Assembly: GCA_029856045.1 (NCBI GenBank)
Contig: JAHQWG010000050.1
Span: 29,471 to 93,470 of the forward strand
Source of the DNA: Promethearchaeia archaeon
GTDB taxonomy: Archaea > Asgardarchaeota > Lokiarchaeia > Sigyniarchaeales > SOKP01
Direction: 5' to 3'
DNA length: 64,000 nucleotides
In this document: piece after piece, positions 20,843 to 25,761 of the stretch
How the letters are laid out: each line of letters opens with the position of its first letter
How positions within the stretch are numbered: the stretch's first letter is position 1
Program-made: the position numbers and the translations under genes
Notes under the pieces: generated by a model
Told to the model about the DNA's origin: nothing
The model's input: only the letters and a program-made list of their open reading frames with translations
Database searches by the model: none

Positions 20843-21451
20843 TTGCCTGTTATGATAGAATGGATAAATTTCATTTCATTGATTCTCAGCGCACTTTTTT
20901 TTTGCTATTTTTATACATTAAGCGTCCAACCAATGAAAAGAAAGGAAAAAAGGGGTGAACAAGCGTGGAAGGATTGCAAGATTTTGCGATCTTTAGCAGG
21001 ACTTTTTGAATTCATTACTATCGTTAATATCTTGCTCTGGGTATGGTTTCCGATTCCTTCATTAAATTGGATAATACATCAAAATATTGGAGTGGGTATA
21101 GGTATATGCATTGCGATTGTTGTTCCTGGTTTTATAATTATTTTTAAAGGCATAAAAGATGCTGGTTTCGAGTCTTTACGTCCATTAGGAGAAACAGAAA
21201 TGTTTGGGGGTATATATAATTATATCCGACATCCTCAAACACTCGGAGAATTCCCAATTTTCATTGCAATTGCCTTTGCCGTCAATTCATGGTTTCTCGT
21301 ATTGTTGATGTCTGTATTAGTTGTAATATATACTCCAATTATGATTCATTATGAAGAAAAAGATCTCATAAAACGTTTTGGAGATAAATATCGTGAATAT
21401 CAACAACGGACAGGTGCTTTATTCCCAAAATTTTGGCATAAATCTGAATAG
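20843..21451 (+). CDS. isoprenylcysteine carboxyl methyltransferase/PEMT family membrane protein
   Basis: GIYNYIRHPQ, EEKDL..RFG..YREYQ motifs; transmembrane segments. Confidence 0.88.
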   Translation: MPVMIEWINFISLILSALFFCYFYTLSVQPMKRKEKRGEQAWKDCKILRSLAGLFEFITIVNILLWVWFPIPSLNWIIHQNIGVGIGICIAIVVPGFIIIFKGIKDAGFESLRPLGETEMFGGIYNYIRHPQTLGEFPIFIAIAFAVNSWFLVLLMSVLVVIYTPIMIHYEEKDLIKRFGDKYREYQQRTGALFPKFWHKSE

Positions 21452-21592
21452 ATTTTGAGTATAATGACGATTTCTTTCAATCCTTATATAATGTAATGAC
21501 AATAGTTACATCTAATAAAGTCAGATAGAAAAAACTATAAGAAAATGTAATATTTTAAAATATTTTTATAATTTATAATCAAGGATGTTATA

Positions 21593-21598
21593 TTTAAA
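21593..21598 (+). promoter_or_regulatory. putative TATA box for the Cys-leader/cysteine synthase transcript
   Basis: TTTAAA about 20-25 nt upstream of the uORF ATG at 21618, consistent with leaderless initiation. Confidence 0.5.
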
Positions 21599-21617
21599 CT
21601 CATATTTTAATAATTTA

Positions 21618-21686
21618 ATGAGATTTAGACAACAGAATCAACCAAATTCTTATTTCTGTAACTGTTGTAGGGATTGTTGTTGCTAA
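21618..21686 (+). CDS. cysteine-rich leader peptide (uORF) MRFRQQNQPNSYFCNCCRDCCC
   Basis: Read manually; 6 of the last 9 codons are Cys; ends 102 nt upstream of cysteine synthase. Confidence 0.8.
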   Translation: MRFRQQNQPNSYFCNCCRDCCC

Positions 21687-21788
21687 AAACAACACCTCAC
21701 ATATTCTCATACATCCATCATACTCCTATAATTATAACGGTATTATGGTGGCTAAATTTATTGATAATAAATCCTTGAGGTAAAAAAA

Positions 21789-22802
21789 ATGACTATATTT
21801 GCAAAGATAAGTAAAAAACTGAATGTAAGCACAAAATCTCAGTTAAGAGTTTTTGAAAGTATTGAGGAGTTGATTGCAACTCCAGAGAATCCAACCCCCT
21901 TAGTTAGATTAAGTGAAAGATTTAATCCGCATAGAAATTTCCCAATATACCTTAAATTAGAGAGATATAACCCATTCGGATCTATAAAAGATAGGATTGC
22001 CCTCTCAATGTTAGAAGGAGTTAAGATAAAAGAAGATCAATACATAATTGAACCTTCATCGGGTAATACCGGTATTGGTTTATCAGCTCTTGCTAATGCG
22101 AAGGGTATTCCAATAGAAATAGCAGTCCCTAGTAGAATCCCTGAAGAAAAGAAGATACTATTAAGGTTATTAGGAGTTAACAACTTGTGGGAAGCAGATG
22201 ATGATTTATGCCCATCATTCCCAAATGAGGGAGCAAGGGGTTTAGTGAATGGGATAATGAAAGGTAAGCGAAGAAAAAGATTTATTAATCCAAATCAATA
22301 TGAGAATCATTTAAACGTTCAAGCACATTATAGAACTACAGGTCCAGAAATTTGGGAACAAACTCAAGGCAAAATTGATTATTTTTTTGGTGCTCTCGGA
22401 ACTGGCGGTACAATAACAGGAGTCGGAAGATATTTAAAGAAAAGAAATCCTTCAGTGAAAATCATAGGTGTTGAACCAGCTAAAGCAGAGCACAATTTAC
22501 CTGGAATGAAGAGAATATCTGATCTTACAGAAGAATTGAAACCAAAAATTTTAGATTATTCTATAATAGATCAAATCTTGGAAGTTGAAGATGATGATGC
22601 GTACCTAACAGGAATCCAATTAGCAAGAAAGAATGGTATTCTTGTTGGCCCCACTACAGGTGCTTTATTATTCGTGGCAATAGAATATGCAAAAGAACAC
22701 AGTGGATTAGCCGTAGTAATTTCTCCAGATGATGCTATGAAATATATAAGTGCTTATGCACCTTATGTAAGGGAAGATGGAATTCCCAAGTTTATGAGCT
22801 AA
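21789..22802 (+). CDS. cysK: cysteine synthase (PLP-dependent, CysK/CysM family)
   Basis: KLERYNPFGSIKDR, EPSSGNTG, NQYEN, TTGPEIW and GTGGT motifs; SD TGAGGT at 21776-21781. Confidence 0.9.
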   Translation: MTIFAKISKKLNVSTKSQLRVFESIEELIATPENPTPLVRLSERFNPHRNFPIYLKLERYNPFGSIKDRIALSMLEGVKIKEDQYIIEPSSGNTGIGLSALANAKGIPIEIAVPSRIPEEKKILLRLLGVNNLWEADDDLCPSFPNEGARGLVNGIMKGKRRKRFINPNQYENHLNVQAHYRTTGPEIWEQTQGKIDYFFGALGTGGTITGVGRYLKKRNPSVKIIGVEPAKAEHNLPGMKRISDLTEELKPKILDYSIIDQILEVEDDDAYLTGIQLARKNGILVGPTTGALLFVAIEYAKEHSGLAVVISPDDAMKYISAYAPYVREDGIPKFMS

Positions 22803-23605
22803 AAATATCTTATATCCACACTTTCATCATCTATGACTTGCTTAAACTCTTGGACAATCCATGCCTTTCTTTCGTCATCTATAGCATAGACGTAATATTT
22901 TGCAGGCATTCTAGCTATAGAATAGACCTGTACTATATCAGGTTTAATTTTTTTAAATGCAAAAGCTAAATCATTTATGTTTTCTGAAGTGTTATTGTCA
23001 GTAAATTTTTCTCTATTTGAATTAAAAATTAAACACTGAATTGCTAATTTATGATCATTCGGCATTTCTCTTTTCAATTTAACGAGGGAGTCAATGATTA
23101 TATCAATATTTGGAACATCTTTATGGGGGCAATTCACTCGTCTAAAATCAATTTCATTCGCTACATCTAATTTTGCCAATACAAGATCAAAATTTTTTAT
23201 TTTTTCCCTTATTTCTTTTAAAAACAAGGTACTAGAGTTAGTAAATAACGTAAGTTGAGGATATTTCTTAGGCCAATTTTTCTCATTTCTAAGTTCTTTA
23301 GCAAGTCTTAAAAAATCTAAGATATTCTCATTTAGCGTAGGTTCTCCATTATAACCAAAAGTGATGGAATTTAAATGAGTTGTATATTTTAAAAATGAAT
23401 GCAATTCTTTTCTAAAATTTTGAGTGGGAGGATCTTTGATTCTATAATCAGGAGGGACTAAATGATCAGGTTGTGTTGATCCAATCTCACAATATACACA
23501 ATTATAAGTGCATTTTTTCATTTTTGGTAAAATATCAACACCAAGGGATGACCCTAACCTTCTAGATAGCCAGGGTCCATAGCAATACCTTCTTGTATTT
23601 CTCAT
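22799..23605 (-). CDS. radical SAM protein
   Basis: YGPWLSRRLGSSLGVD, CTYNCVYC and GEPTL motifs. Confidence 0.88.
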   Translation of the reverse strand: MRNTRRYCYGPWLSRRLGSSLGVDILPKMKKCTYNCVYCEIGSTQPDHLVPPDYRIKDPPTQNFRKELHSFLKYTTHLNSITFGYNGEPTLNENILDFLRLAKELRNEKNWPKKYPQLTLFTNSSTLFLKEIREKIKNFDLVLAKLDVANEIDFRRVNCPHKDVPNIDIIIDSLVKLKREMPNDHKLAIQCLIFNSNREKFTDNNTSENINDLAFAFKKIKPDIVQVYSIARMPAKYYVYAIDDERKAWIVQEFKQVIDDESVDIRYF

Positions 23606-24945: not shown

Positions 24946-25761
24946 ATGGTTAAAATGAATTATAAAGAACGACAAGAAATTATTGCAAATTCCAATATTT
25001 CATCTGATTATTTACAAAAGTTTAACAGGAATATGGGAATTCTTCATTTGATACAAGGGATACTAATGCTAACTGTAGGTCTTATTTTGGAGTTCTCTAG
25101 AGATATTTATACTTTTTACTTGACTTATGAATTCACTCCTCCCGATATTTTCAATATTTATCCCAATCCTGAAGTGATATTCACAATTTCATATTTTGGA
25201 GCTATTTTAGCTTCATTCTTGTTATTGTCCGCGGTAGCCCATCTCCTTATTGCCTATCCATTAAATAAGAGATATAATGAAAATCTAAAGAAAGGATTCA
25301 ATCCTTATCGTTGGTATGAATATGCATTCTCTAGTTCGATTATGATAACTTTTATTTCGTTGCTTTTTGGTGTGTGGGATTTATGGTCTCTGGTAATGAT
25401 TTTTGTCTTAAATGCCACGATGATAATGTTCGGTTATGTAATGGAATTAGTTAATCAATATACAGAGAAATTAAATTGGAAGCCATTTATAATGGGATGT
25501 ATATCTGGAGCAATTCCTTGGATTGTGATTTTAGGATACTTTTATGGCGTAGACGCTGAAGGAATGCCTGATTTTGTATACGTAATTTTCTTTACATATT
25601 TAGTTCTATTTAATACATTTGCTATAAACATGGTTCTTCAGTATAAGGGAGTCGGTCCTTGGAAAGATTATCTTTTTGGTGAACGCGTATATATAATATT
25701 AAGTTTGGCAGCTAAATCATTGCTGGCATGGTTAGCCTTTGCAGGTATTTTACAACCATAA
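24946..25761 (+). CDS. heR: heliorhodopsin
   Basis: HLIQG, SAVAHLL, NPYRWYEYAFSSSIM (counterion Glu) and YIILSLAAKSLLAW (retinal Lys); 7 TM. Confidence 0.95.
   Translation: MVKMNYKERQEIIANSNISSDYLQKFNRNMGILHLIQGILMLTVGLILEFSRDIYTFYLTYEFTPPDIFNIYPNPEVIFTISYFGAILASFLLLSAVAHLLIAYPLNKRYNENLKKGFNPYRWYEYAFSSSIMITFISLLFGVWDLWSLVMIFVLNATMIMFGYVMELVNQYTEKLNWKPFIMGCISGAIPWIVILGYFYGVDAEGMPDFVYVIFFTYLVLFNTFAINMVLQYKGVGPWKDYLFGERVYIILSLAAKSLLAWLAFAGILQP

Follow-up and report, generated by a model that had tools for sequence, protein, structure and literature searches.

A conserved poly-cysteine leader reading frame upstream of a cysteine synthase-family gene in Asgard archaea, a probable leaderless attenuator

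Poly-cysteine leaders of bacteria and the Asgard locus

Ribosome-dependent control through short cysteine-rich leaders has been described in mycobacteria, where polycysteine leaderless short open reading frames (sORFs) are found at Ms5788A and five other loci, the 'Cys ribulon', and where ribosomes stalled in the poly-Cys tract block a structure that hides the Shine-Dalgarno sequence (SD) of the next gene (Canestrari et al., bioRxiv 10.1101/834739). The element considered here lies in a 64,000-nucleotide stretch from a Promethearchaeia archaeon (contig JAHQWG010000050.1, positions 29,471 to 93,470 of the forward strand; the whole stretch is called the window below) and consists of an upstream open reading frame (uORF) that ends in a run of Cys codons and precedes a cysteine synthase-family gene, here referred to as cysK. 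An earlier note on this DNA, made from the sequence alone, had invoked as precedent the leaderless poly-Cys sORFs that act on cysteine genes in mycobacteria, and this precedent is borne out by the published work, in which archaea are mentioned only for their leaderless mRNAs (bioRxiv 10.1101/834739). Like the mycobacterial sORFs, the uORF is a short first reading frame at the predicted 5' end of its transcript, ends in consecutive Cys codons and stands upstream of a cysteine gene. An RNA duplex that hides the next SD is also predicted, in the window as ACCUCA:UGAGGU directly behind the hairpin of the Cys tract. Unlike the mycobacterial sORFs, the leader belongs to another domain of life and has no sequence relation to them; moreover, in mycobacteria it is the Cys tract that pairs with the SD region, whereas here the tract pairs with ACAACA near the stop codon, and a separate anti-SD or a block with two alternative partners is present. 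The mycobacterial leaders form a multi-locus regulon, while the Asgard leader occurs at one locus per genome, and the cysteine response has been demonstrated in mycobacteria, whereas the Asgard case is known from sequence comparison and folding.

The classical attenuators (trpL, hisL, pheL, leuL, thrL and ilv) likewise join a leader peptide rich in codons for the end product to a conserved block that can pair with either of two partners but not with both, but the leader described here has no GC-rich terminator stem, and its U-runs are short (3–7 nucleotides (nt), none in the window). For archaeal RNA polymerase, oligo-U is enough for termination and no hairpin is required, so the logic of the bacterial attenuators is not simply transferable. 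At ermCL and cat, hairpins that hide an SD are likewise remodelled when a ribosome is arrested in a short leader frame; there, the arrest is caused by an antibiotic together with the nascent peptide, whereas here the supply of one charged tRNA would act. The same kind of gene is regulated by Rrf2/CymR-type repressors and T-box leaders, but these rely on a protein acting in trans or on the binding of uncharged tRNA, with no uORF.

In the literature searched for leader-peptide attenuation or amino-acid-sensing uORFs in archaea, none was found and only bacterial work was returned; the earlier note likewise knew of no described Cys-leader attenuator in archaea. Leader-peptide attenuation is a textbook bacterial device, in which ribosomes follow RNA polymerase or remodel the mRNA. 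The explanation as a whole, that the uORF senses Cys supply by ribosome dwell and controls cysK, is considered likely, and the broader proposal that Asgard archaea use a leaderless Cys-reading attenuator, with sensor and gene moving as one cassette, is on balance favoured. If true, this would be the first ribosome-mediated amino-acid-sensing attenuator found in the archaeal domain, as far as the literature was searched, and it would occur in the closest prokaryotic relatives of eukaryotes. A conserved and portable poly-Cys Asgard leader would show attenuation logic at work in archaea, with leaderless starts and without bacterial-type terminators, and, at about 170 nt, would offer a compact and testable model of control coupled to translation in a lineage difficult to cultivate. 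The leader would also point to a kind of regulatory mini-gene that has gone unannotated and is overlooked by gene callers.

The leader reading frame, its promoter and its conservation

The uORF occupies positions 21618–21686 of the forward strand and has 22 codons (MRFRQQNQPNSYFCNCCRDCCC*), with its ATG at 21618 and TAA at 21684–21686. Cys is specified by six of the nine codons at its 3' end (C N C C R D C C C); this tract, codons 14–22 (TGT AAC TGT TGT AGG GAT TGT TGT TGC, 21657–21683), is the proposed sensing site. In the genome that contains the window (3.34 Mb, 29.4% GC), there is a single gene for tRNA-Cys(GCA), and Cys accounts for 1.19% of the residues in the 1978 long ORFs. Only three short stop-to-stop segments with at least six Cys per nine codons were found in this genome, and the uORF is the only one of them that starts with ATG. 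Upstream, the TATA-like box TTATATTTAAAC (21588–21599) has its TTTAAA core at 21593–21598, which corresponds to −25 to −20 from the A(+1) of the uORF. The 19 nt between this core and the ATG are free of G and, since the 20 nt 5' of the ATG hold no G at all, the uORF has no SD. In 12 of the 13 sister leaders introduced below, TTTAAA starts at −28 (to −23) from the uORF A, within the conserved block AATATTTTAAAT, compared with −25 in the window. Archaeal TATA boxes are usually centred about 26 nt upstream of the start, and this position together with the observed spacing places the predicted transcription start on the uORF ATG or no more than a few nt from it. The transcript of the uORF is most likely leaderless, with its start at or beside the AUG, as judged from the TATA spacing and the missing SD. 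An in-frame ATG at 21585 was also considered as the true uORF start and rejected, as it lies inside the TATA block and the corresponding extension in relatives contains stops or lacks a start. From the uORF stop to the start of the cysK-family gene there are 102 nt. Re-reading of the sequence and of the proteome reproduced what the earlier note had described, namely a 22-codon ORF with six Cys in its last nine codons in a proteome where Cys is rare, a TTTAAA box about 20–25 nt before it with no SD, and a distance of 102 nt to a cysteine synthase gene, the target being the CysK/CysM-family ORF.

Orthologues of the enzyme were sought in a large protein collection, with the DNA of the matches fetched, and in 400 genomes of the phylum. 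Many orthologues with 66–76% identity were present in the protein collection; one group, of 329–339 amino acids (aa), carried NCBI names such as Promethearchaeota, Lokiarchaeota and Thorarchaeota, and a group of shorter proteins carried names such as Planctomycetota and Deltaproteobacteria. In total, 14 distinct leaders, comprising that of the window and those of 13 other loci, as well as one partial leader, were recovered, all of them before Asgard-type orthologues of about 70% identity (69–72% between the window protein and the leader-bearing ones) and among them loci from three GTDB genera of the window's own family. Every leader holds a uORF of 21–26 codons with 4–8 Cys, the last codons being CC, CCC, CCCC or CCCCC followed directly by TAA, and the distance from this stop to cysK is 97–115 nt. 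The ATG frame is open in 14/14 leaders, and the two other frames are closed in 14/14, with 1–4 stops each. The 60 nearest GTDB genomes had yielded only paralogue-like genes with 35–45% identity and no Cys uORF; the non-conservation that these kin genomes first suggested was overturned by the true orthologues. Scans of genome and metagenome contigs with the single protein returned few loci, mostly leader-less bacterial or operonic ones.

The uORFs begin with MRI(N/S/K), or MRF in the window. Their non-Cys residues vary, and the apparent conservation of M-R-I-N, V9 and L12-T13 falls on nucleotides of predicted helices. A helix internal to the uORF occurs in three versions, GGUAAG/CUUACC, GAUAGG/CCUAUC (locus L046) and AGAAU/AUUCU (window), each of which encodes different residues. 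As only the Cys codons and the pairable nucleotides are conserved, the product appears to be a regulatory leader peptide and not a functional peptide. A covariance model of the 13 other leaders, from which the window was left out (R2), was run over the whole 64 kb on both strands with filters off, and matched 21618–21710 at full length with 31.9 bits (E = 3e-4), the next match having E = 0.34. A model that includes the window leader (R1) was run over 135 genomes of the family and found exactly one leader copy in each of nine, eight of which have the orthologue; in the ninth (G205), the leader match lies about 130 nt from the contig end. One copy per genome, found only with cysK, indicates a single-locus cis element. 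A regulon was ruled out on the same count (9/135) and on there being no other ATG-started poly-Cys short ORF. No Rfam family came near threshold for the window leader. Conservation across these alignments extends to the uORF with its Cys run, to the spacing, to the linkage with cysK and to the pairing potential, and by this comparison the uORF is a real, conserved and unannotated regulatory mini-gene of this genome. The window leader, which carries the anti-SD, is the most diverged member of the family, and its comparison with the sister leaders can reveal the essential parts.

RNA folding, the proposed mechanism and rival explanations

The conserved nucleotide blocks of the family are ATGAGAATTAAT, TTCATTAATTCTC and TAACCA/TGGTTA, with ATTCTC within TTCATTAATTCTC (region 2) invariant in 14/14 leaders. 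The invariant block UUCAUUAAUUCUC, about 12 nt past the uORF stop, has two alternative partners. In the first pairing it is joined to the first 12 nt of the uORF (−10 to −13 kcal/mol), the uORF start AUGAGAAUUAAU forming a long pairing with the post-stop block AUUAAUUCUCA, and this is the minimum-energy fold in 11/14 leaders. In the second it pairs with the downstream AGAAUU block and extends the UAACCA/UGGUUA hairpin (−10 to −16 kcal/mol). Masking of nt 1–18, to imitate a ribosome that initiates or waits in a queue, made the conserved block change partner in nearly all sequences. Paired cells amounted to 91%, compared with 32–55% for slid partners, and one compensating double change was found in the extension of the second pairing at L046, where UUCAAUAA with UUAUUGAA replaces UUCAUUAA with UAAUGAA. 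The post-stop hairpin is 92% paired over the 14 leaders, with no significant covariation.

In the minimum-free-energy fold of the window leader, ACAACAG (21629–21635) pairs with CTGTTGT (21662–21668) of the first Cys cluster and encloses a small hairpin (21629–21668, forward strand), and the last Cys codons form a hairpin of their own (21676–21693), in which GTTGTT (21676–21681) pairs with AACAAC (21688–21693) and the stop codon lies in the loop. This Cys-tract hairpin is abutted by the anti-SD mimic ACCTCA (21694–21699), which is complementary to the cysK SD, TGAGGT (21776–21781), and is its best partner in the leader; the pairing of the SD region, CACCUCAC with UUGAGGUA, reaches −8.5 kcal/mol, the best value in the whole leader. 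ACCUCA shares the core CCUC with the usual 3' end of archaeal 16S ribosomal RNA. The window version of the invariant block TTCATTAATTCTC, ATTCTCAT (21703–21710), can pair with the uORF start, AUGAGA with UCUCAU, at −5.8 kcal/mol, against −10 to −13 kcal/mol in the family; the AGAAUU block is not present in the window leader, and the long 5'-end pairing is reduced to AUGAGA:UCUCAU. A spacer hairpin, CCATCATA/TATGGTGG (21715–21751), stands in the same place as the UAACCA/UGGUUA helix of the family, with both arms different in sequence. At 10–20 °C, temperatures assumed plausible for a sediment organism, the SD:anti-SD pairing of the free window RNA has a probability of 0.80–0.94, and when the front edge of a ribosome is set at nt 79 the SD is unpaired with a probability of 0.46–0.61. 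Over the positions with the front edge at nt 79 or beyond (at the stop codon, or at the last Cys codon with 15 nt of cover), this probability is 0.46–0.68.

In the proposed mechanism, the leader would depend on ribosomes and act in cis on the cysteine-synthase gene, with the uORF as its sensor. A shortage of charged tRNA-Cys would make ribosomes linger on the six Cys codons ahead of the stop, and their position would alter the folding of the 102-nt spacer. In the window, the ACCUCA mimic would pair with the cysK SD, UGAGGU, and hide it, and a ribosome halted at the far 3' end of this frame would cover ACCUCA, leaving the SD free and cysK translated. In the sister leaders, UUCAUUAAUUCUC would pair either with the uORF start AUGAGAAUUAAU or with the AGAAUU block, the choice being decided by ribosome occupancy of the 5' end. 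The sensor reading, that is, ribosome dwell on the Cys codons, is well supported by the comparison of leaders. The direction of the response, the translation of the uORF and an output on translation or transcription are what we infer from the modelled folds. A modelled release at the most 3' position agrees with the finding that the Cys run always directly adjoins the stop codon, and also with a mechanism of the mycobacterial type, in which the structure hiding the SD is blocked by the stalled ribosome.

Several results weigh against this mechanism. At 37 °C, the SD:anti-SD pairing of the free window RNA falls to 0.18 with a half-open SD, because AGG..UGUUGUUG competes for CAACACCU. With the ribosomal A site on Cys codons 14–22 and 12 nt of 3' cover, the pairing of the SD is kept at 0.74–0.98, so that the SD is more paired and not less; release of the SD appears to rest on a few nt of ribosome footprint, and the modelled folds fit the opposite polarity too. 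No conserved partner of the cysK SD was found in the 13 sister leaders, where positions are scattered, and the accessibility of the start region, evaluated over five ribosome states at 20 °C in the same 13 leaders, gave no consistent trend, with four loci going up and four down. Covariation in the three nested helices amounted to two double-change pairs compared with a shuffled mean of 1.3, 200 of 500 shuffles reaching two; an excess is not seen because most columns are nearly invariant. The U/T-run after the downstream hairpin is 3–7 nt long in the family, and the window spacer has no T-run of four or more, for which reason an oligo-T terminator was rejected as the general output; the hairpin is AU-rich, and part of the family U-run can sit within the extended helix. 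The window spacer also contains TATA-like AT-rich stretches, and a second promoter inside it may provide an extra start for cysK. Of the candidate Cys-sensing attenuator proposed in the earlier note, the conserved cis element tied to cysK has therefore held, while the switching-on by stalling has not found the same backing, as folding with ribosome masks is inconsistent across the family.

The polarity could also be the opposite of that proposed, or the leader could act by plain translational coupling, with cysK output following the flow of ribosomes through the Cys tract to the stop. The equilibrium folds of the window agree with this, as the SD is unpaired (0.53–0.68) with a ribosome at the stop and hidden with a ribosome on Cys codons 14–22, and in the family the conserved block is driven into a long hairpin, with a short U-run after it, when the 5' end is occupied, as it would be by a queued ribosome. 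Nevertheless, switching off the only cysteine-synthase candidate during Cys-tRNA scarcity would be self-defeating, the assimilatory gene contexts found elsewhere and the Cys-poor enzyme speak for the proposed direction, and both the ribosome masks and the energies are approximate for an AU-rich RNA; the reverse polarity is considered unlikely. Slightly less probable still is an RNA-only cis element, such as a leader that binds a protein or ligand or one that affects stability, in which the open frame would be a by-product of a U/G-rich strand pairing with ACAACA. The strong conservation of ATGAGAATTAAT, TTCATTAATTCTC and TAACCA/TGGTTA, their excess of pairing over the slid controls, and the overlap of the conserved MRIN start with a helix arm would all be expected from such an element. 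It would leave unexplained, however, that the ATG stands at the predicted transcription start, that the frame is kept over 21–26 codons with TAA always right after the last Cys, that the other frames are closed in every leader, and that the first Cys cluster is retained as Cys codons although it lies outside the post-stop hairpin; the missing Rfam match also speaks against it.

A free Cys-rich micropeptide, metal-binding or redox-active and co-expressed with cysK, would account for the conserved C-terminal run of the CCC type and would be in keeping with the Cys-rich DUF2769 gene found just upstream in many relatives. This is very improbable, since the number of Cys (4–8), their spacing and all other residues vary, the residues that look conserved follow the RNA helices, the window has no DUF2769 neighbour, and the spacer RNA is conserved, which a role of the peptide does not explain. 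Short ORFs are common in AT-rich intergenic DNA, and TGT accounts for 1.2% of all triplets, but a chance ORF would not be expected to recur in 14 loci at 70% protein identity, to be matched by an independently built model and to be unique in its genome; chance is, by this conservation, refuted and carries next to no weight.

The cysK-family gene and its surroundings

The gene downstream of the leader (21789–22802, forward strand) encodes a CysK/CysM-family enzyme of 337 aa that depends on pyridoxal 5'-phosphate (PLP), with a match to PF00291 (6e-60) and a score of 254 bits with TIGR01136, under the 344-bit cut-off of that model. Its closest solved structures are O-acetylserine sulfhydrylases, and SIKDR (the PLP-Lys motif), SSGNTG and GTGGT are all intact. 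The enzyme is poor in Cys, with one Cys in 337 aa, and it is the only good cysK/M match in the 100%-complete genome of the window, in which neither serine acetyltransferase CysE (TIGR01172) nor SepRS (TIGR00470) was found above cut-off in a search of the whole genome (G000).

Orthologues that lack the leader stand in other contexts. Those at L031, L058, L061 and L063 directly follow a PAPS reductase gene, and L031 and L063 have sulfite reductase as well; those at L033 and L034 adjoin TusA, and that at L060 follows TauE. As these neighbours are assimilatory, the gene context indicates sulfur assimilation. In genome G242, a leader-less orthologue with 70% identity and a short N-terminus (L054) has an Rrf2-family regulator and a hexapeptide acetyltransferase on its upstream side, an arrangement that looks like a protein-based substitute for the leader. 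In genus g79 (L058, L059 and L061), the orthologues are 63% identical and lie in open frames of 404–418 aa that overlap the PAPS-reductase gene or come directly after it, and they may be fused or tightly coupled to PAPS reductase.

Promoter, leader and cysK together form a unit of 1.35 kb (21452–22798, forward strand) without counterpart in relatives of the same genus. In two congeners (G001 and G004), the PEMT-like and radical-SAM genes stand tail to tail with 33–39 nt between them, and since these genes abut there, the unit at 21452–22798 was either gained here or lost there. In a third congener (G002), the same site is taken up by an insert of about 450 nt that is unrelated and contains a small ORF resembling a membrane protein. 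The genes upstream of the leader differ between loci and include DUF2769, an ArsR-type helix-turn-helix gene, a histone-fold gene and a tRNA-Thr editing domain. The distribution of the unit suggests that it moves between genomes as a whole, as a cassette of promoter, leader and gene.

Some further features of the neighbourhood were recorded. The junction of the PEMT-like and radical-SAM genes (21440–21460 and 22795–22810 in the window; L081, L082 and L083) is a recurrent insertion site. The Cys-rich DUF2769 gene (82–97 aa, CGPCPSFK...CSCFGCGL) lies just 5' of the leader at L046 (901–1149), L050, L053, L055, L056 and L064 (679–927). A conserved protein of about 420 aa without a Pfam match is encoded 270–340 nt 3' of cysK in sister loci (L046, 2974–4005; L048, 2775–3999; L064, 2544–3402; L068, 1544–2433; L069, 1698–2619), and it is not found in the window. 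Two kb downstream of the cassette, the window carries an intact heliorhodopsin gene at 24946–25761 (PF18761, 1e-94).

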